Positions 1,400 through 27,608 are shown, counted from the stretch's first letter. The stretch is DNA of 64,000 nucleotides from Pristiophorus japonicus (GCF_044704955.1 NC_091999.1:50344001-50408000), one strand, 5' to 3'. Made by a program: numbers and translations. The notes: generated from the sequence alone by a model not told the origin.

Positions 1400-3005
1400 G
1401 TCAGAGCTTACTCTATCACCACATCATGATCTTAAACGGAGTGCACAAAGAGAGTGTTAAACTTGGGAACGTAGAGAAAGTGAGATTCAGTGGTAAGTCC
1501 GTGGTGAGTCTGGCTGAGTATTAGCTGTAAAAAGGGACATTTAGATTAACGTTTTGAATTGAACTTAGAACTTTAAATACAGAAGTTAGCAGAAACTGCC
1601 TGTTAGTGGTAGTTAACTATCAGTCAGCTGTAAGTGTTAGTCTTAAATATGTGCTAATTACTGCGAGCAATGGGCATGGAGCTGAGACAGCACTTGTAAC
1701 TTGTGTGTGGCTCCAAAGATATAAAACGAAACACTAACTGCTGATGCACAGTGTGTTCTGCACAGTGATATTAAACGGAATTTGGTGAGAGTTTGAATGG
1801 GAACAGTGGTTGAAGGAGGTGCTGCTTTGGCCTCCAAAATACAGCAGGTTGAATACGTTTGGAGAGTATTACCTTTTTTCTCGAAGCTTGGTCCACACTA
1901 AGACCTGGGAGCAATAACAATACTTTATTAAATTAATAATTTAACTATAATTACTAATTAATTAATATAATTATAAATAACAATTGTCTAAAAACTAAGT
2001 AATTAAATTAATTCAGTGTGTAATAAGCAAATAAATTTATAAAAAATAACTAAAGATGGCAGGGTAGGCAATGAGTCGAGACTGTAGTGTGTGTGAGTTT
2101 GTGGACATCAAATCTGTCCCACATTCCCACATCTGCAATAAATGTGTATTCTTTATTCGCTCTGGCTCAGGGTAATTGGGCTGGAGTGCGAGTTCGACAC
2201 ACTCTGAAACACACAGGAGGAGTGATTTAATCCAGAAAACAGTCACATCCCACAGAAAAGCGCAGGTTCAGGAAAGTCCGTGGTTGATTGGGTGTCGTGT
2301 GGCGAGAACTGAGGAGAGGCTGAGAATGAGACAATGCTCCTGCCCAACGATAGGGATAAAGATTGCGTGGAGGACATCCACAATACATACCAAGGTACGT
2401 GGCTCACAATGTTGTCCACAGACAGAGATAGGAAGAAATATTAAACAACTACTTTGCATCAGTATTTATCAGGGAGTCAACACAGGTGGACATGATATTG
2501 GATGATATTAGAAATGAAATAACTGCATTTAAAATAACAAGAGTACAATATTATGTAAACTAATCAAACCGAAAATGGATAAAATGCCGGCTTCGGACAA
2601 ATTACATCGAGGGAAGAGATAGCAGAGGCATTAATAAACATATTCATTATTTCGCTAGAATAAAGTGCAGTGCCAGAGGATTGGCAGATACCTAATGTAA
2701 TACCAATTTTTAAGAAGTGAGGTAGAACGTGTCTGAGGAACTATAGTCCAGTCAACTTAACGTCGTTGGGAGGAAAAATAATGGATTCCCTACTAAAGGA
2801 GAAAGTGGAAGAACAACTAGAAACCAAAAATGAATAGTCAGCATGGATTATAAAAGGGAAAGTCTTGAATTGACCAAATTCTTTGAATTTTTCGAAGAAG
2901 TAACAGATAGCGTAAACTAACGTAATGTAGTAGATGTAATTTATTTGGATTTCCAAAGGCCTTCGATAAGATACCCCATAATAGACTGAAAGGGCAGATG
3001 ACAAA
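1400..3005 (+). mobile_element. Old CR1 LINE remnant (5' region, ORF1 zinc-finger remnant, ORF2 RT fragments)
   Basis: 2057-2210 encodes a decayed MAG..C..C..E...VP..HIC.KC ORF1 start. 2570-3000 encodes ORF2 pieces (IAEALI, VPEDW, ANVIPIFKK, NYSPVNLTSL) with stops and deletions. Confidence 0.65.
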
Positions 3006-3031
3006 TCGTAATTACAATTAATAATAATAAT

Positions 3032-3522
3032 TGTGATGTTTTAAAATGGAGTTAACAGATTTTTAAAATGGATCCCACAGCCTGTTTTTCAGATTGTGAG
3101 AAGCATGTGTGGAATGCCTTCCACAGAGGAGCAGATGTTCCAATTCATAGAGCAAAGGCCTTGGGAGCTGGGCACAGACACAGATAACATAGAATTTGAA
3201 TTCTGTAATAAGATACAAGTTAAATAAAAAGAATCATAACAACATGTATCCTGAATTACTAATTAAACATATAGAGGCCAGATTGGAGGAAGCAACCTAC
3301 CAGATAATCATGTATTAATCAATCAGCACATATTAATTGTAACTTGCATAATTAAGTAAGACTATAATCTGAAACTGTATAAAATAAGATGTCTCTGGCA
3401 GTTTCTCTGCGCATTCATTCAAGGATAGCTCAACTGGCAGCTTGTATCTTTTATTAATAAAAACTGCATTTACTTTAAGGCAAATGGACTCCGAGTATGG
3501 TTTGAAGTTAACTCGAACAACG
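3032..3522 (+). promoter_or_regulatory. Putative 5' LTR of the ERV
   Basis: Begins TG (TGTGATG) where the CR1 remnant stops. TATAAAA at about 3378, AATAAA at 3456-3461. Ends AACAACG (probably a mutated CA) directly before the PBS. No second LTR is present to confirm the boundaries. Confidence 0.6.
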
Positions 3523-3540
3523 CGGCGCAGTCAGCAGGAT
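3523..3540 (+). promoter_or_regulatory. Primer-binding site complementary to the tRNA-Ser 3' end
   Basis: CGGCGCAGTCAGCAGGAT matches TGGCGTAGTCGGCAGGAT at 15/18. The latter is the complement of the tRNA-Ser 3' end plus CCA, as seen in the Ser genes at 17405 and 20785. Confidence 0.75.
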
Positions 3541-5764
3541 CTACTGGACGGGCAGATTAGACTCAAAAAGCCAAACCAACCGAATAACGAGTGAGCAGAT
3601 AATTACCTTGAGAAATTCTCCTCGCAAAGTAAACAGAGATCCAACGAATCTGAGGTAGAGTCCATGCAGCCAGTAAATCCAGTTGAGGGGTGCGTCAGGA
3701 CACTGTAAATAAAGACTGTAAGTTTTGGTACAACAAGTACGTATACAGGAAAAGAGCTTCAGTGTAAATAGTCCCACATAAGTAAAAGCGGAAAAACAGC
3801 ACTAGGTAAAAAGCCTTGGTTTAAAAAGTTCTGCTTAAGTAAAGATGGTAAAAGAGGAACTGGGTAAAAAGCCCCAATGTATGAAATGGCAAAGGAATCT
3901 GCCAAGGCTCTTGGACGGCTGAGTTATAAACTACCAGAATAGTTTCTGAGAGAAAAATCTGAAAATGTCATGAAGATGGTTAAGGCAGGATATGATGAAG
4001 GGAAAAAGATCATTTTAAAAGTCGGAAAGATGAATAGAAAGAGACCCGAAGGTGAGATGGACAGCGAAAGTGACAAAAGACCACAGGATGTAAGTATAAA
4101 AATAGATATAGATGACAGAAGCGAATGGACAGAGGAATTTGGCCCAAATTTGTATCCCCCACTAATAGGGTTATGATTAGGACCTGAGGAAAATAAAGTA
4201 TTGATTGGGGGCCAGAAGGCTCGCTTAGTAGATATTTTCCCGAAGTCCACAACAAAAACTATTAGTGACTTTCTTAAGTGAAGTGTGGATACAAAAATAG
4301 AGCCGGCCAAACAATAAGCTTTGTTGAATGAAGAGAGATTTTTGGGATTGTCTGTCTTTGAATGAAAGTGCTTGTGTGATTTTGGACTTCGGAATATTTG
4401 AGTTGGGAGTTAATGAATTTTTCAGGTGTCTGAAAGCCTGCTTCAGAAAGTGGTAGAGCTATCTGTTGTTATGGCCCCACCCACTTTTTCAGACAGAGTG
4501 AATTTGTTTTAACCCTTTGCAGTGTTGTCCTGTATGAAGGAAGTTTTAAGAAAGTGTGAACCTAGAATTGAATTACATTTTAATTTAGAAACCCAGGTGT
4601 GGATTTATTCAGATGATATGTTATGGAGCTAGGAAATGCACAAAGGATAGGTTTGTTGAGCAAAATATAAAAAATGTGTGGTCCCGATGGTTTAAAAAAA
4701 AATTTTCGACACGCTCATTTGTCAAAAGAAAACATGTAATCATTGATTACATTTGTTTGAAAGACAATACATTTAGTCTAGGAATGAGATAATGAACGGA
4801 GAAGGGAAATTGTAATGCCTTAAAAAAGAATCCTGCGTGGGTGTCTCAAGGCTGCGTGCTTGGGAAGTACGCCCCCATATTTCTTTGTGTAAAATCATGA
4901 TACGAAAGCTTCGAGCTCAGTAAAAATATTTTTAAATAAAAGATTGGCATATTTGAGTTGGGATTTTGAGATATTTCTGGTGATTCTCCTTGATAAACAT
5001 TTTGGTTGTATTGGAAAATCTTGGGTTTGGAAAGACTTTTAATAAAAGTAAACATACTGCGTCAGACGCTGAAGCTCAAAAAGATTACATTTATGAGATG
5101 CTGTATCACAAAATTGAAGTTACACCGCAAAAGATTAGAGTTTTTGATGTTCAGCTTCTAAAACAGAAGTTTGGCACGTAATTATAAAACAAGTACTTTG
5201 CATTCTGTGATCTATGAATCACTACAAAGAATAAATGATAAGTCCGATTAAAAAACAGTATTACCATATTTGACATTTCATAATCCAACAATAAATACAA
5301 ATACTACAAAAGGGGAGCAGAAATCAGGATGGGAGCAGTGAAGAGTTAATTTTGTTGTGAATATTTCAAGTACCACTGTTTAAGAAAATACACAACAAAA
5401 TGAAATACATTTAACATAAAAAGTTAAATCTGATCTCATAAAAAAAAAAAAAAACTATAATGGTTGAAAACAATATAGAAATACCTTCAGGGATCAGGTC
5501 AAACTCCTGGGCAAGTGGGGAGCTATCTGCGAAAGGGTAAAAGGAATTTTGAAAAAAATTAAATGTTAAAACGGCAGTCTTTAGCAGTTTAGAACAAAGG
5601 AAAATATAAGTTGAACTTGTGACTTCAGATACAGTGATTGAAGAACCACAGAAAGTGAGACGTAAAGGCTTTGAAACTGGAACATTTGAGATAACGGAAA
5701 GCAGCAATCAAAGCATCCGTGCTAGACTCTGTTCCAGTTATGGAAAAATCATTTAAGATAACGG

Positions 5765-6017
5765 AAAGCAGGATTTAAAGTAAATCCCAAAAAGGCACAA
5801 ATCGGACAAGCTGTGGTACAGTACCTGGGACATGAAATATCCCAAGGAACTCGGACCATGTCCAATGACAGGAAGGAGGACATTAGGATTATGCCAAGAC
5901 CAAAACCAGCCTGAGGGTTTTGTAAGGTACTGGGGTTCTTTAGCTATTGCAGGAATTTTGTGCCTAACCACAGCAATTGCAGAACCAATACAGTGGCTAG
6001 TGAAAGGAAAATCCGGT
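5765..6017 (+). pseudogene. pol: Retroviral pol fragment (RT palm/thumb C-terminal region)
   Basis: KAGFKVNPKKAQIGQAVVQYLGHEISQGTRTMSNDRKEDIRIMPRPKPA*GFCKVLGFFSYCRNFVPN, then a frameshift, then AIAEPIQWLVKG. Fits the retroviral G.KV..KKAQ...V.YLG...LG...YCR.F.P pattern. Confidence 0.8.
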
Positions 6018-6308
6018 TGAAATGGAAATGGTAAGACTCTAACTAAAACTGGAATATCCAGGATGTGTTTTATCAACAGAATATAAACGTGATCATCACC
6101 GTCCTTCCGATTCTACAAGGACAAGCTACAAGGCCGCCCCGAGGTTGCCCAGAAGCATTTAACCACAGCGGAGGGTACAACAACTACGTAAAGCAGCCTC
6201 TAGAGGGCGACATCTAAGTATCAGGAGCGTTTGTCTTGAAGCCATAAGATAAGTGTGTAAAAAATGTTACCTGAATAATGTAAACCAGGGGAATTAAACT
6301 TGGGAAAT

Positions 6309-6962
6309 TGCCTGGTAGTTAAACCTGGAACAGAAGTAATGTTGTTATTTGACAATGTGCAGCATGAAATGTTACCTGTGAGCATAAATGTATCAGCCCT
6401 ATACCTGCCAGAAAAAAATTAGCCACAAGACTAAAGCGTTGTAAATACGATTGCTAGACACAATCCTGAGAATAGCTAGTGACACATCAGGAGGAAGAGA
6501 TAACACAAGAAGCTGAGACACAAAGAAGGAAGACAGAGGAGATTTACAGCGAATGACGTATTAACTTTACAGGGACATTTCTAGTAAATGCACCAGATAT
6601 ACAGGCGATCCAGGCACGTGTAGATAGTTTGAGGGGAACAACGGAGGTACTAATCAGGAAACAGGCCAGGATTGGGATAGAATCTTCAGAGTTAGGATCT
6701 AAAACATCCAAAAAAAATGCTAGAGGGTGTATCCGTATTGGAAGGCCATGCACGAACAATTAAAGAGCAAAATAAGCAGGAATTGAGAGGACGATGCCGA
6801 GGACAGGAAAATAGACACATGTCATGCCGATGGTAGATGGCTGATTGGTCAGGTGAGACACAATATGGATCAGATACAAACCGGGCGAGTTACAGGTTCA
6901 ATAAATAGCACCCAGTTGAAAGAAATGGCACAGCACACTGGGCCATTAGATGCATGCACCAT
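6309..6962 (+). pseudogene. env: Retroviral env remnant with furin site and fusion-peptide/heptad region
   Basis: CLVVKPGTEVMLLFDNVQHEMLPVSINVSALYLP; RQRR at 6531-6542 followed by FTANDVLT; frameshift; TGTFLVNAPDIQAIQARVDSLRGTTEVLIRKQ; later TCHADGRWLIGQVRHNMDQIQTGRV. Confidence 0.55.
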
Positions 6963-9900
6963 GAAACATAGAAACATAGAAAAAAGGTTGCAGGAATAGG
7001 CCATTCGCCCCATCGAGCCTGCACCAACATTCAATAAGGTCATGGCTGATCATTCACCTCAGTACCCCTTTGCTGCTTTCGCTCCATACTCCTTGATCCC
7101 TTTACCTCAAGGGCCATATCCAACTCCCGCTTGAATATATCTGATGAACTGGCATCAACAACGTTCTGCGGAAGAGAATTCCACAGGTAACAACTCTCTG
7201 AGTGAAGAGGTTTCAACTCATCTCGGTCCTAAATGGCTTATCCCTTGTCCTTAGACTGTGACCACTTGTTCTGGACTTCCCCAACATCGGGAACGTTCTT
7301 CCTGCATTTAACTTGCCCAGTCCATGCAGAATTTTAAGTTTCTGAGGTCCCCTCTCATTCTTCTAAACTCCAGTAAATACAGACGCAGTCGATCCAATCT
7401 CTCCTCATATGTCAGTCCTACCATCCCGGAAATCAGTCTGGTGAACCTTCGCTGCACTCCCTCAATAGCAAGAACGTCCTTCCTCAGATTAGAACAAAAC
7501 TGAACACATTATTCCAGGTGAGGCCTCACCAAGGCCCTGTACAGCTGCAGCAAGACCGCCCTGCTGCTATATTCAAATCCCCAAGATATGGGGCCAACAT
7601 GCTATTTGCCTTCTTTCTGTCTGCTGCACCTGCATGCCAACCTTCAATGACTGATGTACCATGACACCCGGATCTCGTTGCACTTCCTCTTTTCCGAATC
7701 TGTCGCCATTCAGATAATATTCTGCCTTTGTGTTTTTGCCACCAAAGTGCATAACCTCACATTTATCGTTATTAAAGAAATCTGCCACGCAATTGCCCAC
7801 TCACCGAACCTGTCCAAGTCACTCTGCAGCCTCTTAGCATCCTCCGCACATATCACACCGCCATCCAGCATAATGTCATCTGCAAAATTGGAGATATTAT
7901 GCACAATTCTTTCATCTAATTCATTGATGTATATTGTAAATTATTGGGGTCCCAGCACTGAGCCCTGCGGCACCCAACTAGTCACTGCCTGCCATTGTGA
8001 AAAGGACCCGTTTATCCCGACTCTGTCAACCAGTTCTCTATCCACATCAATACATTACCTCCAATGCCATGTGCTTTAATTTTGCACACCAACCTCTTGT
8101 GTGGGACCTTGTCAAAAGTCTTTTGTAAGTCCCACTGCACCACATCCACTGGTTCTCCCTTGTCCGCTCGACTCGTTGCATCCTCACAAAATTCTAAAAG
8201 ATTTGTCAAGCATGATTTCCCTTTCATAAATCCATGCTGATTTGGACCGATCCTGATAGTGCTTTCCAAATGTGCTGCTGTTTCATCTTTAATAATTGAT
8301 TCCAACATTTTCCCCACCACTGATGTCAGGCTAACTGGTCTACAATTACGTGTTTTCTCTCTCCCTCCTTTTTCAAAATGTGTTGTTACATTCGCTACCC
8401 TCCAGTCCATACGAACTGATCTAGACTTGATGGACTGTTAGAAAATGATCACCAATGCATCCACTATTTTTAGGGCCACTTCCTTAAATATTCTGGGATG
8501 CAGACCATCAGGCCCAGGGGATTTATCGGCCTTTAGTCCCACCAATTTTCCGAACATAATTTCCCACAAATAAGGATTTCCTTCAGTTCCTGCTTCTCAC
8601 TAGCCCCTCGGTCACGTAATATTTCCAGAAGGTTATGCGTGTCTTCCTTCGTGAATGCAGAGCCAAAATATTTGTTCAACTGGTCGACCGTTCCTTTGTT
8701 CCCCATTATAAATTCACCTGAATCTGACTGCAAGGGACCTACGTTTGCCTTCACTAATCTTTTTCTCTTCACATATCTATAGAAGTTTTTATGTTCCCAG
8801 CAAGCTTCCTCTCATACTCTATTTTCCCCCTCCGCAATAAAACGCTTTGTCCTCCTCTGCTGAATTCTAAATTTCTCCCCGTCCTCGGCTTGATGCTTTT
8901 TCTGACCAATTTAAATGCCTCTTCCTTGGATTTAACACTATTCTTTATTTCCCTTGTTAGCCACGGTTGAGCCACCTTGCCCGTTTTATTTTTTTAATCC
9001 AGACAGGGATTTCCAATTGTTGAAGTTCATCCATGTGATTTTAAATGTTTTCTATTGCCTATCGGCCTCAACCCTTTTAAGTATCATTTCCCAGTCTATT
9101 CTAGCCAATTCATGTCTCATACCATCGAAGTTACCTTTCCTTAAGTTCAGGACCGCAGTCTCAGAATTAATTGTTTCACTCTCCACCTTAACAAAGAATT
9201 CTACCTTATTATGGTTACTCTTCCCCAAGGGGCCTCGCACAACAAGATTGCTAATTAGTCCTTTCTCATTACACATCAACCAGTCTAGGATGGCCAGCCC
9301 TCCAGATGGTTCCTCAACATATTGGTCAAGTAAAACATCCCGTATACACTCCAGCAAATCCTCCTCCACAGTATTGCTACCAGTGTGGTTAGGCCAAATT
9401 ATATGTAGATAAAAGTCGCCCAATAAACTTCTGTACCTATATTGCACACATCCCTGCTTTCTTGTTTGATGCTGTCCCCAAACTCACTACTATTGTTTGG
9501 TGATACACAACTCCCACTAGCGTTTTCTTCCCTTTGATATTCCGCAGCTCCACCCACACAGAATCCACGCGAATGTCCTTCCTTACTATTGCGTTAATTT
9601 CCTCTTCAACCAGCAATGCCACCCCACCTCCTTTTCCTTTCTGTCTATCCTTCCTGATTGGTGAATATCCCTGGATGTTGCGTTCCCAGCCTTGGTCACC
9701 CTGGAGCCATTTCTCCGTGATGCAAATTACATCATATTCATTCATTGCTGCCTGTGCAGTTAATTTGTCCACCTTATTACGAATACTCCTCGCATTGAGG
9801 CACAGTGCCTTCAGGCTTGTTATCTTACCGCACCTTGTCTCTTTATAATTTGGCTTCAATGTGGCCCTTTTTGATTTTTGCCTTGGGTTTCTCTGCCCTC

Positions 9901-10453: not shown

Positions 10454-10537
10454 TACCAAGAGTGGGGTATCGAACACACACAGCTACACACCCATTGGAT
10501 TTTACGTCCAACGCCTAAACCACTCGGCCATCCTGGT
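10454..10537 (-). pseudogene. tRNA-Leu(TAA) pseudogene, copy 1
   Basis: Reverse complement begins ACCAGGATGGCCGAGTGGTTTAGGCGTTGGAC. T-arm and variable arm are damaged and U33 is changed to G. Confidence 0.85.
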
Positions 10538-10634
10538 TTTATCAGTATTCGGATTTTGTCTCTGTGAGAATATGGGCTGCAGCTCCACTCTCACAGACAG
10601 AGGTTTTCAATGAGCATTTTCAAATATTTACAGC

Positions 10635-10880
10635 AATATTGACACAGGGGCAATTCTCCTATTCTTTTTCGAGTAATGCTCTGGGAACTTTCACACCCAC
10701 CCAAGGGTGCAGACGGAGCTTCAATTTAACATTTCATCCGAAAGTCAACAGCTTCAACAATGCAAAATTGCCCAAGTACTGTATTTGAGTGTCAGCCAAG
10801 ATTAAATGCTCAAGTCTCAGGAGAAGGACTGACACACACAACCTCCTGATTCAGCCGAGAATGCTGCCACTGAACCAAAT
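10635..10880 (-). mobile_element. Deu-SINE (SacSINE1-like) 5' portion; part of the array unit, also at about 16750-16990, 19125-19360, 22478-22725 and 25891-26140
   Basis: Minus strand reads a tRNA-like head GGTTCAGTGGCAGCATTCTCGG, then GAGACTTGAGCA...GGCTGACACTCA...CAGTACT and the Deu core CTTTCGGATGAAATGTTAAA. Confidence 0.8.
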
Positions 10881-10963
10881 CTCACATCCGTATTACTTTC
10901 CCCAAGTCTTTTTATAAAGTTCCAGGACATTTGAAGCAATATTCAACATTTTGAAAAAGCTCC

Positions 10964-11035
10964 ACCCTCATCAGGGCATTGAACCCCGACCTCACGAGTG
11001 ACAGGAAGGGATACTAACTACTACACGAACGAGGA
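10964..11035 (-). pseudogene. tRNA-Asp(GTC) pseudogene, copy 1
   Basis: Reverse complement TCCTCGTTCGTGTAGTAGTTAGTATCCC..CCTGTCAC..GGGGTTCAAT. Anticodon GTC is retained, the stems are mismatched, and a T5 terminator lies just downstream. Confidence 0.85.
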
Positions 11036-11696
11036 ACTGACGGGCATTTGCTTTGTCAGAGCAGGAATCGAGCTGTGAACAGAACTGGACAACATGAGAA
11101 GTCGACAGGCACATTGAGAGACAGAGACAAACCGACAAACAGGGAGAGACAGACAGCGAGATAGAGACAAAGTGAGACAGAAAGTATGAGACTGAGAAGG
11201 AGAGGCAGACTGAGTGAGAAAAAGACTCAAACACACACATATACAGATATGTGTGTGTATGTGCTCTTTAAAGAGAGAGAGGGAAAGAATGAGAGAAAGA
11301 CAGTGACAAAGAGAGAGACAGAGAAAGAGTGAGTGACAGATCGAGAGATAGGCACAGATATAAACAGAAAATGATGAAACAGCAGGTTAGAGACAGGAAC
11401 TAACAGAGACAGGCAAAGAGAGAGACAGGTACAGACATGGACAGACAGAGAGGTTGGGAATGAGAGCGACAGTCAGACAGAGAGACTGAGAGAATCCCAT
11501 TGGAACAGAACTGGACATCGTGAGAAAGAGGCAGATAAGTTGAGAGACAGGGAAACAGGAGGAAGGTCAGACTGAATAACAGAATGCCTCATACACGTAC
11601 ATATACAGAGATGTGTTTGTGTGCTCCATAAAGAGAGGGAGGCAAATAGTGATGGAATGACAGGGACAAAGACAGGAGCAAAGAGAGAGACAATTC

Positions 11697-14130
11697 ATAG
11701 AATGCATACGGGACTATTTCTTAGAACAGTATGTAACAGAGCCTACAAGGGAGCAAGCCATCTTGGATCTGGTCCTGTGTAATGAGACAGGAAAAATAAA
11801 TGATCTCCTCATAAAAGATCCTCTCGGAATGAGTGATCACGATATGGTTGAATTTGTAATACAGATTGAGGATGAGGAAGTTGTATCAGAAACGAGAGTA
11901 CGATGCTTAAACAAAGGGGACTACAGTGGGATGAGGGCAGAGTTGGCTAAAGTAGACTGGAAACAAGGACTAAACAGTGGCACAATTGAGGAAAAGTGGA
12001 GGACTTTTAAGGAGCTCTTTCATAGTGCGCAAAAAAATATATTCCAGTGAAAAAGAGGGGCGGCAAGAGAAGTGATAACCAGCCGTGGATAACCAAGGAA
12101 ATAAAGGAGAGTATCAAATTAAAAACCAATGCGTATAAGGTGGCCAAGGTTAGTGGGAAACTACACGATTGGGGAAATTTTAAACGACAGCAAAGAATGA
12201 CTAAGAAAGCAATAAAGAAAGGAAAGATAGATTACGAAAGTAACTGGCGCAAAATATAAAAACAGATAGTAAAAGCTTTTACCGATATATATAACGGAAG
12301 AGAGTGACTAAAGTAAATGTTGGTCCCTCAGAAGATGAGAAGGGAGATTTAATAATGGGAAATGTGGAAATGGCTGAGACCTTAAACAATTATTTTGCTT
12401 CCGCCTTCACAGTGGAATACACAAAAACAATGCCAAAATTTGCAGGCCACAGGAATGTGGGAAGGGAGGACCTCGAGACAATCACTATCACAAGGGGAGT
12501 ACTGATGGACAGGCTAATGGGACTGAAGGTAGACAAGTCCCCTGGTCCTAATGAAATACATCCCAGGGTATTAAAAGAGATGGCTGAAGTTATAGCAGAT
12601 GCATTGGTTATAATCTACCAAAATTCTCTGGACTCTGGGGAGGTACCAGCGGACTGGAGAGCAGCTAATGTAACGCCTCTGTTTAAAAAACGGGGCAGGC
12701 AAAAGGCAGGTAACTATAGGCCGGTTAGTTTAACATCTGTAGTGGGGAAAATGCTTGAAGCTACCATTAAGGAAGAACTAGCGGGACATCTAGATAGGAA
12801 TAGTGCAATCAAGCAGACGCAGCATGGATTCATGAAATGGAAATCATGTTTAACCAACTTACTGGAATTCTTTGAGGATATAACAAGCATGGTAATAGAG
12901 GTGTACCGATGAATGTGGCGTATTTAGATTTCCAAAAGTCATTCGACAAGGTGCCACACAAAATGTTACTGCAGAAGATAAATGTACGCGGAGTCAGAGG
13001 AAATATATTAACATGGATAGAGAATTGGCTGGCGAACAGAAAGCAGAGAGTCGGGAAAAATGGGTCCTTTTCTGGTTGGAAATCAGTGGTTAGTGGTGTG
13101 CCACAGAGATCAATACTGGGACCACAACTGTTTACAATATACATGGATGACCTAGTAGAGGGGACAGAGTGTAGTGCAACAAAATTTGCAGATGACACTA
13201 AGAATAGTGGGAACGCGGGTTGTGCAGAGGACACAGAGAGACTGCAAGGAGATTTGGATAGGTTAAGCGAATGGGCTAAGGTTTGGCAGATGGGATACAA
13301 TGTCGGAAAGTGTGAGGTCATCAACCTTGGGAAAAAAAACAGTAAAAGGGAATATTATTTGAATGGGGAGAAATTACAACATGCTGTGGTGCAAAGGGAC
13401 CTGGAGGTCCTTGTGCATTAATCCCAAAAGGTTAGTTTGCAGGTACAGCAGGTAATCAGGAAGGCGAATGGAGTATTGGCCTTCATTGCGAAAGTTATGG
13501 AGTACAAAAGCAGGGAGGTCTTGCTGCAACTGTATAAGATTTGGTAAGGCCGCAACTGGAGTACTGCGTGCAGTTTTGGTCACATTACTTAAGGAAGGAT
13601 ACACTAGCTTTGGAAGGGGTACAAAGACGATTCACTAGGCTGATTCCAGAAATGAGGGGGTTTCTTTATGATGATAGATTGAGTAGACTGGGTCCTTACT
13701 CCTTAGAGTTCAGACGGATGAGGGGTGATCTTATAGAAACATTTAAAATCATGAAAGGGATAGACAAGATAGAGGCAGAGAGATTGTTTCCACTGGTCGG
13801 GGAGACTAGCACTAGGGGGCACAGCCTCAAAATACGGAGGAGTCAATTTAAAACCGAGTTGAGAAAAAATTTATTCTCCCAGAGGGTTGTGAATCTGTGG
13901 AATTCTCTGCCCAAGGAAGCAGTTGAGGCTAGCTCATTGAATGTTTTCAAGTCAAAGATAGATAGATTTTTAACCAATAAGGGAATTAAGGATTACGGGG
14001 AGAGGGCGGGTAAGTGGAGCTGAGTCCACGACCAGATCAGCCATGATCTTATTGAATGGCGGGGCAGGCTCGTGGGGCTAGATGGCCTACTCCTGTTCCT
14101 AACTATTATGTTCTTATGTTCTTATGTTCA
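11697..14130 (+). mobile_element. CR1 LINE (5'-truncated ORF2 to 3' tail) inserted in the GA-rich spacer
   Basis: ORFs 11763-14023 give endonuclease C-terminus and RT (GNYRPVSLTSVVGK, FADDTK, EYCVQFWS). (TTCTTATG)n tail. The spacer sequence resumes at 14131. Confidence 0.95.
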
Positions 14131-14184
14131 AAGGGGGAGACAGATAGAGAGAAAGACAGATATAGAGAGAGATAGAGAAAATAA

Positions 14185-16142
14185 TTCGGTTCTGTCTTTA
14201 CAAAGGAAGATACAAAAAACCTTCAAAATGTACCAGGGGACTGTGAGTCTAGTGAGAATGAGGAACTGAACGATATCCTTATTGGCGGGAAATTGTATTA
14301 GGGATATTGATGGGAATAATGGCCGATAAATCCCTGGGTCCTGATAGTCTGCATCCCAGAGTACTTACGGAAGTGGCCCTGGAAATAGTGGATGCATTGC
14401 TGATCATTTTCCAACAATCTATCGACTCTGTATCAGTTCCTATTGACTAGAGGGTAGCTAATGTGATGGCACTTTTTAAAAAAGGAGGGAGAGAGAAAGC
14501 GGGTAAATATAAATCGGTTAGCCTGACATCAGTAGTGGGGAAAATTTTGGAATCAATCATTAAGGATGAAATAGCAGCCCATTTGGAAAGCACTGACAGG
14601 ATCGGACCGAGTCAGCATAGATTTATGAACGGGAAATCATGCTTGAGGAATCTTCTGGAATTTTTTGAGGATGTAACGAGTAGAGTGGACAAGGGAGAAC
14701 CAGTGGATGTGGTGTATTGAACTTTCAATAGGCTTTTGACAAGGTCCCGCACAAGAGATTGGTGCACAAAATCCCAGCGCATGATATTGGGATTAATGTA
14801 CTGATGTGGATAGAGAACTGGTTGGCAGACAGGAAGCAGAGAATCGGGATAAACAGGTCCTTTTCAGAATGGCAGGCAGCTACTAGTGAAGTGCCGCAGG
14901 GCTCAGTGCTGGGACCCCAACTCTTTACAATATACATTAACGATTTGGTTGAAGGAATAGAGTGTAATATCTCCAAGTTTGCGGATGACACTAAACTGGG
15001 TGGTATTGCGAGCTGTGAGGAGGATGCTAAGAGGCTGCAGGGTGACTTGGACAGATTAGATGAGTGGGCAATTATACGGCAGATGCAGTATAATGTGGAT
15101 AAATGTGAGGTTATCCATTTTGGGGGCAAAAACACAAAGGCAGAATATTATCTGAATGGCGGCACACTAGAAAAAGGGGAGGTGCAACGAGACCTGGGTG
15201 TCATGGTTCATCAGTCACTGAAAGCGGGCACGCAGGTACAGCAGGCGGTAAAGAAGGCAAATGGCATGCTGGCCTTCATAGCTAGGGGATTTGAATATAG
15301 GAGCAGGGAGACCTTACTGCAGTTGTACAAGGCCTGAGTGAGGCGGCCAGACCTGGTATATTGTGTTCAGTTTTGGTCTCCTAGTCTGAGGAAGGACGTT
15401 CTTGCTATTGAGGGAGTGCAGCAAACCAGTTGCCAAACAGTTCTCTATTCACGCCAGTACCTTAATCCCAATACCATGCACTTGGATTTTGTGCACCAAT
15501 CTCTTGTGCGGGACCTTGTCAAAAGCCTATTGAAAGTCCAAATACACCACATCCACTGGTTCTCCCTTGTCCACTCTACTCGTTACATCCTCAAAAAATT
15601 CCAGAAGTTTCATCAAGCATGATTTCCCTTTCATAAATCCATGCTGACTCGGCCGATATTGTCAACAGACTGATTCCAGGGATGGCAGGACTGTCATATG
15701 AGGAGAGATTGGATCAACTGTGCCTTTATTCATTGGCGTTTAGAATGATGAGAGGGGATCTCATAGAAATATATAAGATTCTGACGGGACTGTACAGGTT
15801 AGATGCGGGAAGAAAGTTCTCGATGTTCGGGAAGTCCAGAAACAGGGGACATAGTCTTTGGATAAGGGGTAGGCCATTTAGCACTGAGATGAGGCGAAAC
15901 TTCTTCACTCAGAGTTGTTGACCTGTGGAATTCCCTGCCGCAGAGAGTTGTTGATGCCAGTTCATTGGATATATTCAAGAGGGAGTTAGATATGGCACTT
16001 ACGGATAAGGGGGTGAAGGGTTATGGAGAGAAAGCAGGAAAGGGGAACTGAAGGAATGGTCAGCCATGAACATATTGAATGGCGGCGCAGGCTCGAGGGG
16101 CCTAATGGCCTAATCCTGCAGTTATTTTCTATGTTTCTATGT
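14185..16142 (+). mobile_element. CR1 LINE, RT to 3' tail, with an internal inverted self-duplication at 15425-15660
   Basis: ORFs 14463-15921 carry RT motifs PQGSVLGP and FADDTKL. TTCTATGT tail at about 16127-16142. Confidence 0.93.
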
Positions 16143-16564
16143 ATCTAAAACTGAAAATGATGAAAATACTCATCAGGTTAGAGACAGGGACAAAGTGAGA
16201 CAGGCAAAGACATGGGCAGACATGATGGGAAAGAGAGAGACAGTCAGACAGAGAGTCTGAGAGAATCCTATTGGAACAGACGTGGGCACCGTGAGAAAGA
16301 GACAGATTGAGAGACAGAGACAAACAGAGAAACAGGCACAAACAGAGTGAGTCAGAGAGAGGCAGACTCAGACTCAAGCACACAAACACATGCACAGCTC
16401 TCTAAAGACAGAAAGGCAGAGACTGAGATACACAGATACATTTCACAATTTCATTTCATGATCGGCTCAGAGTGTCACAGAGTAACAGAAAATTGTTGAT
16501 TCTGCAGATGAAACTCAGGTATCACTGATCAGCATGGGGCAAAATCAGTGATAAATCAAAGAGA

Positions 16565-16646
16565 TTCGAGGAGTGGGGTACGAACTCTCGTGGGAAAATC
16601 TCATTGAATTTTAAGGCTGGCGTCTTAACCAGTCGGCCATCCTGGT
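16565..16646 (-). pseudogene. tRNA-Leu(TAA) pseudogene, copy 2
   Basis: ACCAGGATGGCCGACTGGTTAAGACG... with broken acceptor and anticodon stems. T-loop reads TTCGTAC. Confidence 0.8.
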
Positions 16647-17404
16647 CCTTCCAGTGTTTCGATTCTGTCTCTGTGAGAATCTGGGCTTCAACTCCACCCC
16701 ACAGACACACACATACACATCGGGTTTCAGTGAGCATTTCGGAACATTTTAATAATATTGACACAGGGGCAACTCTCCTATTCTTTTTCGAGTAATGCTG
16801 TGATCCACCCGAGGGTGCAGACGGAGCTTTAATTTAACATTTCTTCCGAAAGTCAACAGCTTCAACAGTGCAAAATTCCCCAAGTACTGCACTTGAGTGT
16901 CTGCCAAGATTATCTGCTCAAGTCTCAGGAGTGGGACTTAAACACACAAACTCCTGATTCAGTCGAGAATACCGCCACTGAACCAAAGCCGATACCAAAG
17001 TTCACAACCGTATTATTTTCATCAAATCTTTTAAAAAATTCCATGACATACCAAATTCATGGTGATGATTTATACAGACAGTTGCACATACACAGATATA
17101 TATATATACCCGATAGAGAGACACAGACACACACACACATAAGCAAAAATATACTCGCACCAACGGACATGTCTATCCCTCTATATGTCTTAGACATATA
17201 GAGGGATAGACAGGCTGAATCACTGTCGCAACTTTGGCTAATTTTTGCGTTTTTCTATACGTAAGTATCGTGAAAATTGCAGTTTAATAAAAATGATTTA
17301 AAAAATGACAGTTTTGAAAGGTGTGGGACGTTATTCCATCTATCCCAGGATGAGTTTTGCAGAGACCTGGTTAAATTGTGAAATGGAATGAAAATGCTGA
17401 GAAT

Positions 17405-17486
17405 CGTAGTCGGCAGGATTCCACCTTTAGGCGAAAAATACGATGGATTTTCGAGTTCATCGCTGTAACCTCTTGCCCACGACTAC
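17405..17486 (-). pseudogene. tRNA-Ser pseudogene (AGA-type body)
   Basis: Ends GTAGTCGTGG...AATCCTGCCGACTACG are intact; internal arms are heavily mutated. Confidence 0.8.
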
Positions 17487-17673
17487 TGACTCGTTATTTA
17501 TTTAAATGTTACTCAGATAAAACTCAGTCATCCACCTCTCTGCAGCAGATGACACAGAATTCTGAAAAAATCTCCTCTTCCTATATTTTTACTATTCTGC
17601 ATTGCTCTGGAACTTTTTAATATTAATCTATACCAAGAAACAGAAGTAAAATCCTGCATTTTGAAAAAGCTTC

Positions 17674-17744
17674 CTGCCCGTTGGGAATTGAAACTCTGTC
17701 TTCTGCATAACAGGCCGGGATACTTAGCACTATTCCAACGAATG
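17674..17744 (-). pseudogene. tRNA-Asp-derived pseudogene, copy 2 (anticodon position reads GTT)
   Basis: Same position in the unit as copy 1; AGTATCCCGGCCTGTTATGCAG. Confidence 0.7.
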
Positions 17745-18442
17745 TGGATTTAGTCAAAGCAGGGATCGAACTGTGAAGAGAACTGGACTCCATGAGAAGT
17801 GGAGAGACACATTGAGAGACAGAGACAAACGGACAAACAGGGAGAGACAGACAACGAGATAGAGAGAACGAGAGACAGAAAGTGTGAGACTGAGAACGAG
17901 AGGCAGACGAATGGAGAAAAAAACTCAAACACATACTTATACAGAGATATGTGTGTGCTCTATAAAGAGAGAGAGGGAAAGAGTGAGACAAAGACAGTGT
18001 TAATGACAGTGACAAGGACAGAGACAGATAGAGAGAGAGCGACAGATAGAGAGAGAGACAAAGATATAAACAGACAATGATGGAAATACTCAGCAGGTTA
18101 AAGACAGGAACTAACAGCGACAGGAAAAGAGATACAGACAGGCAGAGGCATAGACAGACAGAGATGATGGGAAAGAGAGAGGCAGTCAGACAGAGAGACT
18201 GAGAGAATCCCATTCGAACAGAATTGGACACCGTGAGAAAGAGACAGACTCATTGAGAGACAGAGACAAACAGGGAAACAGGGAGAGACAGATAGCGAGA
18301 TAGAGACAGAGAGAGACAGAAAGTTTTAGACTGAGAGTGAGGGTCAGACTGAGTGACACAAAGATTCAAATACTTACATACACAGAGATGTGTTTGCGTG
18401 CTCCATAAAGAGAGGGAGGCAAATAGTGATGGAATGACAAGA

Positions 18443-18618
18443 NNNNNNNNNNNNNNNNNNNNNNNNNNNNNNNNNNNNNNNNNNNNNNNNNNNNNNNNNN
18501 NNNNNNNNNNNNNNNNNNNNNNNNNNNNNNNNNNNNNNNNNNNNNNNNNNNNNNNNNNNNNNNNNNNNNNNNNNNNNNNNNNNNNNNNNNNNNNNNNNNN
18601 NNNNNNNNNNNNNNNNNN
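18443..18618. other. Assembly gap (N run) inside a GA-rich spacer of the array
   Basis: Run of N. Confidence 1.
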
Positions 18619-18933
18619 ATGATGGAATGACTCATCAGGTGAGAGACAGGGACCAACACAGACAGGTTAAGATATGGACAGAGATGAAGGGAAAGAGAGA
18701 GACGGTCAGACAGAATCCCTTTGGAACAGAATTGGACACAGTGAGAACAAGACAGAGGCAGACTTCGAGAGACAAAGACACAAACACAGCTTGCGAAAGA
18801 GAGAGGCAAAGACTGAGCGACACAGATACATTTCATTATCTGCTCAGAGTGTCACCGAAACATGCAAATGCAACAGATGTAAATCGGGTATCACTGAGCA
18901 GCATGGGAAATAATCTCTGTTTAATTAAGCAAT

Positions 18934-19016
18934 TACCAGTTGTGGGGTTCGAACCCGCGCAATTATAATTTCATTGGATTTTAAGTCCAACACATTAACC
19001 ACTCAGCCATCCTGGG
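18934..19016 (-). pseudogene. tRNA-Leu(TAA) pseudogene, copy 3
   Basis: Anticodon arm TTGGA-CTTAAAA-TCCAA and GGTTCGAACC B box are intact. Acceptor stem and variable arm are broken. Confidence 0.85.
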
Positions 19017-19535
19017 CCTGGCAGAAACGGGCTTTGTCTCTGTCAGAATTTGGGCTTCAGCGCCACCCCCACAGACACACACACACACAGAGGGTTTCAG
19101 CGAGGATGTTCGAACATTTTTAGTGATATTGACACGAGGGCAACTCTCCGATTCTTTTTCGAGTAATGCTCTGGGACCTTTCACATCCATCCGAGGGTGC
19201 AGGCGGAGCTTTAATTTTACATTTCATCCGATGGTCAACAGCCTCAACAATGCAAAATTCCCTAAGTACTGCATTTGAGTGTCAGCCAAGATGATGCGCT
19301 CAAGTCTCAGGAGAGGGACTTACACAAACGACCTTTTGAATGGAGCCACTGAAACAAAGCCGATACCAAAGATCACAAGCGTATTATTTTCCCCAAGTTT
19401 TTTAAAAAGTTCCAGGACATACCAAATTCTTGGTGATGATTTCCATAGACAGTTGCACAGACACAGAGACATACATACAGATAGACATAGACAGACACAC
19501 ACACACATAAAATAACCAAAAATATACACGCATCA

Positions 19536-20265
19536 ACATAGAAACATAGAAACATAGAAATTAGTTGCAGGAGTAGGCCGTTGGCCCTTCGAGCCTGCAC
19601 CACCATTCAATAAGATCATGGCAGATCATTCAACCTCAGTACCTATATCCTCCTTTCCCTCCATATCCCTTGATCCCTTGAGCCGTAAGAGCCATATCTG
19701 ACTCCCTCTTCAATATATCTAATGAACTGGCTTCAACAACTTTCTGCGGTAGAGAATTCCACAGGTTAACCACTCTCTGAATTAAGCTCTTTCTCCTCAT
19801 CTTGGTCCTCAATGGCTTACCCCTTATTCTTAGACTGTGACCCCTGGTTCTCGAACTCCCCAGCAACAGAAACATTCTTCCTGCCTCTCACTTGTCCAAT
19901 CTCGTCAGAATTTTATATGTTTCTATCAGATCCCCTCTCATTCTTCTAAACTCCAGTGGATACGAGCAGAGCTGATCCAGTCTATCCTCATATGTCAGTC
20001 CTGCTATCCCTGGAATCAAGCTGGTGAACCTTCGCTGTTCTCCATCAATAGCAAGGACGTCCTTCCTCAGATTTGGAGACCAAAACTAACAAAATATTTA
20101 ACGTGTGGCTTCACCAAGGCCCTGTACAACTGCAGGAAGACTTTCCTGCTCCTAAATTCAAAGCACCTAGCTATGAAGGCGAACATGCCATTTGCCTTCT
20201 TCACTGCCTGTTGCACTTGCATGCCCACTTTCAATGAAAGATGTAGCATGACACCCAGATCAAGA
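19536..20265 (-). mobile_element. CR1 3' fragment that is part of the long array unit; same insertion at about 22897-23615 and 26298-27008
   Basis: Same 5' truncation point (CCCAGATCAAGAT) and same insertion site (after ACACGCATCA) in three consecutive units. Confidence 0.92.
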
Positions 20266-20784
20266 TGTACACAGAGTGCCTTAGACAAATAGACGGATAG
20301 ACAGGCAGGGTCACTGTCGCTGCTTTGGCTGGCCTTTGCATTTGTCCGTCGAGAATGCTGCCACTGAACCAAAGCCAATGCAACGTCACAAACGTATTAT
20401 TTTCTCCAAGTCTTTTGAAAAAGTTCCAGGACATACCAAATTCATGGTGATGATTTCCACAGACAGTTGCACATACACAGAGACATATATACAGATAGAC
20501 AGATACAGACACACACACACACACTCACACACACACACACATAACCAAAAATATACAGGCACCAACGGACATGCACAGATGACTTAGACATATCGAGGGA
20601 TAGACAGGCTGAATCACTACTTTGGCTGATTTTTGCATTTTTCTATCCGTATGTATCGTGAATATTGCAGACTAATAGAAATGTGAAAAAAATTTCAGTG
20701 TTGAAAGGTTTGGGACGTTATTCCATCTATCTCAGGATCAGTTTTGCAAAACCTGGTTAAATTGTAAAGAAAAGTGCTGAGAAT

Positions 20785-20866
20785 TGTAGTCGGCAGGATT
20801 CGAACCTACACGCAGCAAACCCAAAGTATTTCTAGTCCATCGCTTTAACCGCTCGGCCACAATTAC
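20785..20866 (-). pseudogene. tRNA-Ser(AGA) pseudogene
   Basis: GTAATTGTGGCCGAGCGGTTAAAGCGATGGACTAGAAAT...GTAGGTTCGAATCCTGCCGACTACA. A/B boxes are recognisable; the anticodon stem 3' side is mutated. Confidence 0.88.
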
Positions 20867-21085
20867 TGCGTCTCTGGCACTTTAAATGTTACTCAGAAAA
20901 AACTCAGTCGTCCATCTCTGTGCAGCAGACGGCAACAGAATCCTGAAAAAGTCTCCGTTTGCATAAAAACCTGGAAGAGGCAATCTCCTCTTGCTGTATT
21001 TTTACTGTTCTATATTGCTCTGGAACTTTTTAATAAAATCGAAACCAAGAAACAGAAGTAAAATTCGACATTTTGAAAAAACTGC

Positions 21086-21157
21086 TGCGACGTCGGGAAA
21101 TTGAACCCGGTTCTCCCCCATAACAAGCGGGGATAATCACCACTAAACGGACGAGGG
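21086..21157 (-). pseudogene. tRNA-Asp-derived pseudogene, copy 3 (GTT)
   Basis: CCCTCGTCCGTTTAGTGGTGATTATCCCCGCTTGTTATGGGGGAGAACCGGGTTCAAT. Confidence 0.8.
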
Positions 21158-22297
21158 TACGGGTTGCGTTAGAGCAGCAATCGAGCTATGAACAGAAGTC
21201 GACAGACACATTGATCGACAGAGACAAACCGACAAACGGGGACAGACAGACAGCGAGAGAGAGAGACAACGCGAGACAGAAAGGGTGAGACTGAAAAGTG
21301 AGGCAGACTCAGTGAGAAAAAGACTCAAACACCTACATATACAGAGATGTGTGTGTGTGATCTATAAAGAGAGAGAGGGAAAGAGTGAGAGAAAGACAGT
21401 GACAAGGAGAGAGACAGATAGAGAGAGAGCGACAGATAGAGAGAGAGACAGATATAAACAGAAAATGATGGAAATGCTCAGCAAGTTAGAGGTAGCAACG
21501 ACCAGCGACAGGCAAAGAGAGAGAGATAGGCAGAAACATAGACAGACAGAGATGATGAGAAAGAGTGAGACAGTCAGACAGAGAGACTGAGTGAATCCCT
21601 TTCGAACAGAACTGGACACCGTGAGAAAGAGACAGACAGATTCAGAACCAGAGACAAACAGGGAAACAGGGAGAGACAGACAGTGAGATAGAGACAAAGT
21701 GAGACAGAAAGTTTGAGACTGAAAGGGAGGATCAGACTGAATGAGAAAAAGACTCAAACACATACATACACAGAGATGTATTTGCGTGCTCCAAAAAGAG
21801 AGGGGGGGCAAATAGTGATGGAATGACAGAGAAAAGGACAGGGACAAAGAGAGAGAAAAAGAGGGCGACAGATAGAGAGAAAGACAGATAGAGAGAGAGA
21901 GACATAGAGACAAACACAGAAAATAATGGAAATACTTATCAAGTTAGAGACAGGGACTAACAGAGACAGGCAAAGACATGGACAGACAGAGATAATGGGA
22001 AAGAGAGAGACAGTCAGACAGAGAGTCTGAGAGAATCCCATTGCAACAGTACTAGACACCGTGAGAAAGAGACAGATTGAGAGACAGCGACAGACAGAGT
22101 GGGTCAGAGTGAGACAAAGTCTCAAACACACAAACACATGCACAGCTCTCGAAAGAGAGAGTGCGGCAGAGACATTTCACAATTTCATTTCATTATCTGC
22201 TCAGAGTGTCACATAGTTACAGAAAACTAGAGATTCAGCAGATGAAAATCGGGTATCACTGAGCAGGATGGGAAAAATATCTGTTTAATTAAGGAAT

Positions 22298-22380
22298 TAC
22301 CAGGAGTGGGGTTCGAACCCACGCGGGTATAAACCCATTAGATTTTAAGTCTAACGCTTTTCCCACTCGGCCATCCTGGT
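22298..22380 (-). tRNA. tRNA-Leu(TAA), copy 4; nearly intact cloverleaf, possibly functional
   Basis: ACCAGGATGGCCGAGTGGGAAAAGCGTTAGACTTAAAATCTAATGGGTTTATACCCGCGTGGGTTCGAACCCCACTCCTGGTA. Perfect 7-bp acceptor, 5-bp anticodon, 4-bp variable and 5-bp T stems; A73; one D-stem mismatch; T5 terminator about 20 nt downstream. Confidence 0.75.
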
Positions 22381-24134
22381 CTTGATCCTGTCAAAGGATG
22401 GACTCTGCCTCTGTGAAAATCTGGGCTTCAGCTCCAGACATATCGGATTTCAGGAAGCATTTACAAACATTGTTCGTTATATTGACACGGGCGCAACTCT
22501 CCTATTATTTTTCGACTAAGGCTCTGGGAACTTGCACATCCACCCGAGGGTGCAGATGGAGCTTCAATTTAAAATTTCAGCTGATGGTCAACAGCTTCAA
22601 GAATGCAACATTCCCCAAGTACTGCATTTGAGTGTCAGCCAAGATTATGGGTTCAAGTCTCAGGAGTGGGACTTCCACACACAACCTCCTGATTCAGTCG
22701 AGAAAGGAGCCACTGAACCAAAACCGATACCAAAGTTCACAACTGTATGATTTTCCCCAAGTTTTTTAAAAAGTTCCAGGTCGTACCAAATTCATGGTGA
22801 TGATTTCCACAGACAGTTGGACACACACAGAGACATACATACAGAGAGATACACAGACACACGCACACACAATAACCAAAAATATACACGCATCACCATA
22901 GAAACATAGAAATTAGGTGCAGGAATATGCCATTCGGTCCTTCGAGCCTGCACTACCATTTAATAACATCATGGCTGATCATTCAACCTCAGTACCCCTT
23001 TCCTGCTTCCTCTTTATACCCCTTCATCCCTTTAGCCGTAAGGGCAATATCTAACTCCCTTTTGAATATATCTAATGAACTGGCCTCAACGACTTTCTGC
23101 AGTGGAAAATTTCAGAGGTTATCCACTCTCTGAGTGAAGACGTTTCTCTTCATTTCGGTTTCTAAATGGCTTACCCCTTACTCTTAGACTGTGATCCTTG
23201 GTCTCGAACTCCTCAGCAGCGAGAACATGCTTCCAGCCTCTAAGCTGTCCAATTTCGTCACAATTTTTCATGTTTCTTCTGATCTCCTCTCATTCTGCTA
23301 AACTCCAGTGGATACCAGTCCAGTTCATCCAGTCTCTCCTCATATGTCAGTCCTGCCATCCCGGGAATCATGCTGGTGAACTTACGCTGTACTCCCTCAA
23401 TATCAAGGACGTCCTTCCTCAGATTCGGAGACCAAAACTGAACACAGTATTCCAGGTGTGGCCTCACGGAGGCCCTGTTCAAATGCAGTAAGACCTCCCT
23501 GCTCCTATACTCAAATCCCCTAGCTATGAAGGGGAACATGCCATTTGCCTTCTTCACCATCTGCTGCACCTGCATACCAACAATCAATGACTGATGTACC
23601 ATGGCACCCAGATCAAGATATACAAAGATTGCCTTAAACAAGTAGATGGATAGACAGGCAGGGTCACTGTCGCAACTTTGGCTGTCTTTTGCGTTTTTCA
23701 GTCGAGGATACTGCCACTGAACCAAAGCCGATACCAAAGTTCACAACCGTATTATTTTCCCCAAGTCTTTTTAAAAATGTTCCAGCACATACCAAATTCA
23801 TGGTGATGATTTCCACAGACAGTTGCAAATACACAGAGACATATATACAGATAGAAAGACTCAGAGACACACACACCCACACACATAACCAAAAATATAC
23901 ATGCACCAACAGACATGATTTTGACATATAGACGGATAGACAGGCTGAATCACTGTCGCTACTTTGGCTGATTTTTGCGTTTTTCTATCCGTATGAATCA
24001 TGAATATTGCAGATGAATAAAAATGAGAAATAGATGTCAGTGTTGAAATGTGTGGGACGTTATTCTGCCGATCTCAGGATCCGTTTTGCAAAAACCTGGT
24101 TAAATTGTAAAATGGAATGAAAAATGCTGTGAAT

Positions 24135-24215
24135 CGTAGCCGGCAGGATTCGAAACTCACGCAGAAAACCGAAAGGATTTCTGGACCGTCGCTTTAACCA
24201 CTCGGCAACAACGAC
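24135..24215 (-). pseudogene. tRNA-Ser(AGA) pseudogene
   Basis: Positional homologue of the other Ser copies; GCCGAGTGGTTAAAGCG...CCAGAAAT...TTCGAATCCTGCCGGCTACG. Confidence 0.8.
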
Positions 24216-24433
24216 TGCGTCTCTGGCCCTTTAAATGTTACTCAGAAAAAACTCAGTCATCCATCTCTGTTCAACAGACGGCCACAGAATCCTGAAAAAG
24301 TCTCCGTTTGCAAAAGATCTGTAAGAGGCAATCTCCTCTTGCTGTATTTTTACTGTTCTATATTGCTGTGGAACTCTTTAATAAAATCTATACCAAGAAA
24401 CAGAAGTAAAATTCGACATTTAGAAAAAGCTGC

Positions 24434-24505
24434 TTTTCCGTCGGGGAATTGAACCTGGTTCTCCCGCGTAAAAGGGGGGCATAATCGGCACGACAGGGAC
24501 GAGAG
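24434..24505 (-). pseudogene. tRNA-Asp-derived pseudogene, copy 4
   Basis: 3' half ACGCGGGAGAACCAGGTTCAATTCCCCGACGGAA is recognisable; the 5' half is decayed. Anticodon position reads TTT. Confidence 0.72.
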
Positions 24506-25695: not shown

Positions 25696-25778
25696 TACCA
25701 GGATTGGTGTTCAAACCCACGCCGGTATAAACCCATTAGATCTTAAGTTCAACGCATTTACCACTCGGCCATCCTGTT
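25696..25778 (-). pseudogene. tRNA-Leu(TAA) pseudogene, copy 5
   Basis: AACAGGATGGCCGAGTGGTAAATGCGTTGAACTTAAGATCTAATGGG...; B box mutated (GGTTTGAAC). Confidence 0.85.
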
Positions 25779-27538: not shown

Positions 27539-27608
27539 CAGAGCCGGCAGGATTCGTTCCTGCGCGGGGTAAACCCAAACATCGCGTTAACCACTCGGCG
27601 ACAACTAC
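27539..27608 (-). pseudogene. tRNA-Ser pseudogene with deleted anticodon arm
   Basis: GTAGTTGTCGCCGAGTGGTTAACGCGATG is joined directly to TTTGGGTTTACCCCGCGCAGG; about 12 nt are missing. Confidence 0.8.

Follow-up and report, generated by a model that had tools for sequence, protein, structure and literature searches.

A decayed, duplicated provirus in Pristiophorus japonicus and its probable membership of a basal retrovirus lineage whose envelope is predicted to be of the F type

In the accessible part of PMC11468914, the envelope (Env) proteins of orthoretroviruses and foamy viruses are assigned to separate fusion-protein subclasses. An Env resembling the F proteins of paramyxoviruses and pneumoviruses (F-like) is treated as a lokiretrovirus peculiarity in the portion of PMC7947760 that was available, with four open scenarios for its origin. 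Epsilonretrovirus Env, neither gamma- nor beta-type, is left unclassified in the available text of 10.1101/2021.11.23.469661. Among cartilaginous fish, the elephant shark harbours endogenous retroviruses (ERVs) related to snakehead retrovirus (SnRV; CmiERV lineage I) as well as epsilon ERVs (PMC4422223, in part). Here, a 64,000-nucleotide stretch of the Pristiophorus japonicus genome (GCF_044704955.1 NC_091999.1:50344001-50408000; contig C23; hereafter the window) was analyzed. The window contains a provirus between positions 2987 and 6966 in which every reading frame is broken. We consider it probable that the provirus is a dead, duplicated copy whose subfamily depends on a helper and belongs to an unnamed basal retrovirus lineage that occurs in sharks and bony fish and carries an F-type envelope.

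The anatomy of the retrovirus family was read from natural frames in other copies. The family Pol contains reverse transcriptase (RT), a tether with a second RNase H, and an integrase followed by a GPY/F-like motif (RWSGPYE), and the family Gag carries CCHC knuckles (zf-CCHC PF00098 in the gag of locus L028, E 9e-9). Close Pol relatives (44–61%) are found in Heterodontus, Mustelus, Pristiophorus, Acipenser and Pimephales. The window itself retains a frameshifted RT fragment (5762–6009, plus strand) downstream of the deleted catalytic YxDD motif. The fragment includes the AGFKVNPKKAQ..YLGH..YCRNFVP motifs (5762–5968) that a preliminary description of the element had pointed out. The RT piece corresponds to residues 142–210 of the L027 family pol frame with 78% identity, and 43 of 46 residues are identical to those of L030, a member of the RT tree.

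The reference viruses are viral contigs without names. The labels for walleye dermal sarcoma virus (WDSV; 12,708 nt) and for gamma, foamy and delta viruses are presumed from record length, motifs, clustering and the ORFs present, and one record of 10,688 nt is taken to be SnRV. This length equals that stated for SnRV in the available part of PMC12193657. A single row, P0174, represents the lokiretroviruses and was recognised by RT motifs given in the accessible portion of the PMC7947760 supplement. A careful RT tree was built with LG+G4 from 39 rows and 256 columns, and a quick mixture-model tree from 82 rows. Neither tree includes six rows with short RT sequences, one of which is the 50-residue piece from the window, too short for placement.

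In the 39-row tree, the family and its shark and minnow relatives form one RT clade (96/85), which lies inside Retroviridae (100/93), with the loki reference outside, and is itself outside class I (100/99). The family shares an open fork with SnRV, the foamy viruses and class I. Approximately unbiased (AU) tests reject a grouping with loki (p 0.007), WDSV (0.0002), gamma (5e-7) or gypsy (0.025) sequences and do not reject a grouping with SnRV (0.39), with foamy viruses (0.24) or as sister to all class I (0.074). The RT tree and AU tests thus place the family outside both Ty3/Gypsy and the gamma/epsilon ERVs. The family is probably a basal fish retrovirus lineage, neither gamma/epsilon nor lokiretroviral, that functions in the manner of SnRV-grade retroviruses, and it is likely a member of clade Huo.

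SnRV and the SnRV-related ERVs (clade Huo; PMC6001957, in part) share several features with the family. SnRV is the best named match of the RT core (140 bits, versus 102 for WDSV), and in both the family and SnRV, Gag ends with a CCHC knuckle and, after it, a GGG motif. The class III-type 5-bp target duplication of SnRV-related ERVs is also found in five of the seven LTR (long terminal repeat) pairs of independent family copies (three exact and two with one mismatch). Unlike SnRV, the family has a shorter env and an RNase H nearer class I, and no 3' ORF was seen in it; the RT identity is 41%, and the tRNA-Ser primer-binding site (PBS) differs from the PBS of the SnRV-length record. ERV3 and ERV4 (Chong et al. 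2014, PMC4299795, in part) resemble the family in belonging to neither class I nor class II and in their 5-bp duplication, but lack the zinc knuckles and GPY/F-like motif that the family possesses. The family fits the unclassified group 'related to Ovex1 and SnRV' in the accessible part of that study.

Outside the RT core, several regions resemble class I, and an early class I offshoot, sister to gamma and epsilon viruses, that retained a WDSV-type envelope and is no SnRV relative would account for this. Judged by scores and not by trees, RNase H reaches 78–93 bits to class I references, compared with 12 to loki and 16–17 to foamy references, and Gag, thumb and tether also score best to class I among the named viruses. 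The best PDB match of the combined RT–RNase H region is of murine leukaemia virus type (326 bits, versus 152 for foamy and 101 for Ty3 RT). The zinc knuckles and GPY/F-like motif, a family env nearest to WDSV Env among named viruses and a class I sisterhood that the AU test does not reject fit the same account. However, the RT core shows TIDY in place of the class I VQDL and has its highest score against SnRV, the duplication is 5 bp rather than the 4 bp listed in Table 1 of PMC4299795 (seen in part), and the family falls outside the well-supported class I node. A class I offshoot is unlikely.

The family Env is predicted to be an F-type fusion protein similar to those of respiratory syncytial virus (RSV), paramyxoviruses and foamy viruses. 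The gamma-type immunosuppressive domain (ISD) and CX6CC motif are absent from all five long family envs checked and present in the gamma references. The env fold was modelled on P0139, an uninterrupted frame of a related, otherwise defective copy, using a 30-row alignment, and the resulting model has a mean pLDDT of 60 and a pTM of 0.37. In a Foldseek search of the PDB, all listed rows are pneumovirus or paramyxovirus F proteins (RSV, henipavirus, human parainfluenza virus 3 and human metapneumovirus), with a best E of 2.7e-8 and TM-scores of 0.2–0.3. A viral structure library returned lispi-, chu- and baculovirus glycoproteins, paramyxovirus F and feline foamy Env. In a VIA search, foamy Env and F account for every one of the top 13 rows (best Z 8.5, rmsd 7.0, 243 aligned).

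Profile comparisons connect the family env with further fish retroviruses. The best named sequence match is WDSV Env (hhalign probability 92.8%), which on this profile evidence is a remote homolog. The matches to SnRV Env (367 columns, probability 18%) and foamy Env are weak, and gamma Env gives no match (hhalign probability 2%). A single-sequence scan of the viral contigs found no relative, and relatives emerged with alignments only. SnRV Env is also predicted to be F-like: a model of its Env region matches F proteins with an E of 2.9e-7, from an alignment that included shark envs and hence is not independent. A VIA search with this model is weak, with foamy Env at the top (Z 7.6, rmsd 16.1, 207 aligned) and coiled coils otherwise. 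The literature search found no statement that the envelopes of SnRV-grade, epsilon or shark ERVs adopt an F fold, a negative that does not establish absence from print.

A representative library contains 18 env relatives, and the named ones come from three shark genera and one frog. Two long env homologs are annotated as host proteins, P0133 and P0138, in the frog Pelodytes (723 aa) and a bamboo shark (739 aa, labelled immunoglobulin-like); these envs are possibly co-opted or recent. In several copies, integrase and env are separated by a short frame that combines a hydrophobic stretch with a basic tail (L030 4836–5087; L038 1742–2341). It may encode an env leader or a small membrane protein and is mostly deleted in the window.

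The preliminary description had proposed a poorly described shark retrovirus with an F-protein-like env that is not of gamma or epsilon type and had suggested a resemblance to lokiretroviruses and some class III-related (ERV-S-like) elements. The closest named env and pol relatives do come from sharks, the lineage is apparently unnamed, and the related P0139 frame receives a predicted F-protein fold. The non-gamma character of the env also held, but its separation from epsilon Env did not, given that the best named match is the epsilonretrovirus WDSV. Both the family and WDSV Env are without a gamma-type ISD or CX6CC; unlike WDSV, the family has a 5-bp duplication and a different RT affiliation, and no cyclin-type accessory frames were seen in it.

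The Env comparison with foamy viruses (Fernandez et al. 2024, PMC11468914, in part) raises the alternative of a foamy-like (clade Tu) fish retrovirus. Foamy Env shares the predicted F-like core and is the best VIA match, the AU test, on a tree without fish foamy-like references, does not reject the grouping, and foamy rows lie near the family in the quick mixture tree (SH-aLRT 89). The family Env is, in contrast, much shorter, and the Pol differs, with foamy references reaching only 83–88 bits in the RT core besides their low RNase H scores. Accessory frames after env were not seen in the copies read. Foamy virus Gag is not known to have a Cys-His box or CCHC knuckles, unlike the zinc-knuckle Gag of the family. 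A foamy-like placement is very unlikely.

The lokiretrovirus link is largely refuted and very improbable. It would extend lokiretroviruses to cartilaginous fish, where none of the six chondrichthyan genomes was loki-positive in the available part of Wang and Han (PMC7947760), so that a loki element here would be new. As in lokiretroviruses, an F-like Env is combined with a basic cleavage site (RQRR; RXKR-type, or R-X-R-R) and with a tether and second RNase H, the latter being common to all retroviruses and not diagnostic. The integrase also scores higher to the loki row (168 bits) than to named retroviruses (≤144), again by score and not by tree. However, the AU test rejects the RT grouping, the RT motifs are unlike those of all loki sequences in the compared portion of the PMC7947760 supplement, and RNase H is of class I (gamma/epsilon) type, with 85–93 bits to gamma/epsilon references against 12 to the loki row. 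None of the 30 env rows matches PF00523, and no SMC gene was seen in the family.

Independent insertions with LTR pairs and a polypurine tract reveal how the defective subfamily is built. The RT breakpoint, located after the catalytic motif at residue 142–143, is the same in the window and four independent insertions, and in the same four insertions the tether joins mid-integrase at one identical place. Two other insertions retain the RT palm. A defective genome that occurs at several sites with proper ends points to copying by a helper, and the subfamily was thus likely spread by a helper virus; complementation in trans is a listed mechanism in the accessible part of PMC10435555. In the proposed sequence of events, host tRNA-Ser would have served the ancestral virus as primer for reverse transcription, its integration would have duplicated 5 bp of the target, and cell entry would have relied on a furin-cleaved trimeric Env, both subunits of which, judging from the cleavage motif and the predicted fold, would share the F fold. 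Deletions would then have stripped the subfamily of most of gag, of protease, RT palm and RNase H and of half the integrase, with packaging and copying in trans likely provided by an intact helper.

LTR pairs diverge by 0.035–0.096 substitutions per site. The value of 0.035 converts to a loose age of about 8 or 79 million years under the two rates in the consulted part of PMC4422223. Copies with 88% identical RT DNA (window versus L030) have env types that are only ~22% identical in protein, and their LTRs differ. Near-identical RT together with divergent env and LTR suggests exchange of env and LTR within the family.

Several observations weigh against this overall interpretation. The window env pieces are only about 22% identical to the folded P0139, the two being linked through intermediate homologs to which the window pieces are 40–48% identical. 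The P0139 model is middling in its pTM and TM-scores, and a Z of 8.5 is close to the level reachable by unrelated models. Sequence-level matches to F were absent from Pfam searches with 19 pieces and 30 aligned rows and from PDB searches by sequence and profile, and a longer-protein search with an env piece gave none among 680 candidates. The ESM Atlas places haemagglutinin first (0.89) and F families behind it (0.82), under the Atlas reliability line. The RT does not fix the position of the family among SnRV, foamy viruses and class I, with class I sisterhood not rejected by the AU test, and the highest scores of both RNase H and Gag are to class I references. The LG+G4 tree holds one loki row and no ERV-L, ERV-S or ERV4, and class II appears only in the quick tree. 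Helper-driven spread is deduced from shared deletions.

The combination of a predicted F-like Env with a basal true-retrovirus polymerase that is not lokiretroviral suggests that the F-type envelope is more widespread than assumed. A bolder proposal, to which we give somewhat less than even credence, is that the family is an unnamed genus-level fish lineage and that its F-type Env, together with those of SnRV, WDSV, foamy viruses and lokiretroviruses, represents the ancestral retroviral envelope, with gamma and beta Env a later replacement. The ancestral state of the F-type Env is favoured by the predicted occurrence of such an Env on a basal retrovirus that otherwise looks ordinary, with WDSV and SnRV Env as remote homologs. 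If the proposal is true, the F fold would not separate foamy viruses or lokiretroviruses from orthoretroviruses. An ancestral F-type Env becomes testable by structure-guided phylogeny, and screens that demand a gamma or beta transmembrane motif would miss such elements. The window locus itself is a dead passenger, and its importance rests with the family.

The window provirus (plus strand) begins with a 533-bp 5' LTR (2987–3519, TG...CA) that contains a TATA at 3378 and AATAAA at 3223 and 3456. These signals were noted in the preliminary description, but the LTR start given there (3032) is rejected: the LTR matches end to end, from TG to CA, both LTRs of an independent copy on another contig (L037/L038), which sets the TG 45 bases earlier, at 2987. 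After a 3-nt gap from the LTR CA, the PBS (3523–3540) is complementary to tRNA-Ser, with the noted 15/18 matches to the 3' ends of genomic tRNA-Ser(AGA) genes and 16/18 to one variant gene. The PBS matches at 17/18 in the sister copy and at 17–18/18 to tRNA-Ser(AGA) or (CGA) in other subfamily members, and in two other insertions it matches a tRNA-Ser(CGA) gene at 18/18. The window holds five sites with at least 14/18 matches to a tRNA-Ser 3' end, one of which is the PBS and another the tRNA-Ser gene of the window.

The PBS is followed by a long leader (3541–4172) without a Pfam match in six frames. The leader frame is open for 256 codons in one independent copy and for at most 139 codons in the other loci examined, and a conserved accessory gene is rejected, as the frame is open in one insertion only. 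An LYPPL peptide in the leader (4150–4164), previously read as gag-like, precedes the start of gag (about 4173) and occupies a different frame, and is therefore not a Gag late domain. The gag N-terminus remnant (4173–4332) carries DWGPEGSLSRYF, the same motif as at the gag start of L077, and has nucleotide matches to L077, L061 and L032 (E about 1e-10). An AT-rich segment of about 1.2 kb (4333–5490) sits in place of the rest of gag and protease. It is present in at least six independent insertions, with 76–86% identity to independent copies, and gave no matches to family gag/pro, reference viruses or Pfam, which rejects it as recognisable gag or a known domain. A protease–RT junction remnant (5504–5548; tblastx to L077 and L032, blastn to L029) precedes the RT fragment.

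The env remnant (6010–6966) covers part of the N-terminal subunit, the RQRR motif and the start of the fusion subunit with the first helical repeat. The RQRR cleavage motif (6531–6542) and the GTFLVNAPDIQAIQARVDSL after it, both noted in the preliminary description, are separated by a frameshift. Env homology extends over 6225–6969 in three frames, and the best piece reaches an iE of 2.5e-14 with a profile built without window rows. The remnant contains at least three frameshifts as well as stops, and its 3' end is cut off. Approximately 1.05 kb of the sister insertions is absent from the window at 6009/6010, and neither a second (3') LTR nor the remaining env was found within the window, so the element is 3'-truncated.

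The provirus lies between two LINEs (long interspersed nuclear elements). Its 5' flank and insertion target is a decayed LINE fragment of the endonuclease–RT type (2616–2977, plus strand; tblastn with the LINE ORF2 from L041), which is common to all duplicated copies. A second LINE terminates the provirus on the minus strand (6963–9709; tblastn 7064–9709 with an endonuclease–RT ORF) and is presumably CR1-like, by its microsatellite tail. The provirus–LINE junction is identical in five of six copies compared. The window copy would have lost the further 1 kb and its entire 3' end beside this LINE.

The C23 copies are a single insertion spread by segmental duplication in a tRNA-gene array. An LTR search gave 776 candidates, with 35 of the 40 scored ones on C23, and the flanks of all 26 loci from the first searches, three of which are the window itself, can be aligned with it at 93–100%. 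Four flank groups are found among 24 LTR-bearing loci. An inverted twin 2.3 Mb away (C23:48019001-48089000) is 99.9% identical over about 70 kb when compared with the window and the 10 kb upstream of it, and is either a duplicate created in assembly or the product of segmental duplication in the very recent past. Other copies have tens of kilobases in common with the window at 89–98% identity. The common flanks and LINE junction show that one insertion was multiplied by segmental duplication. Recent retroviral activity or selection for the locus, to which the 109 of 150 scored RT matches on C23 (identity up to 99.9%) might point, has a negligible probability, because both flanks and the LINE junction are in common, which refutes a retrotransposition burst, and every frame is broken. 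Multiplication would have been passive, the provirus and its flanks being carried along as a unit bearing tRNA genes underwent segmental duplication on one chromosome.

The duplicated unit bears degenerate tRNA genes. The region 10454–28689 of the window lies within an array of degenerate tRNA-Leu(TAA) and tRNA-Ser(AGA) genes. One tRNA-Ser 3'-end pattern has 1059 exact genome matches; among the 100 listed, C23 accounts for 96, and many of these belong to a 1.95-kb tandem array. On unplaced contigs, L129–L139 represent a second insertion with the same LTR type, likewise multiplied together with a flank common to 10 of 11 loci. At L027 (1848–4799), the env of the C2 copy harbours another retrovirus, more distantly related but within the same broad clade.

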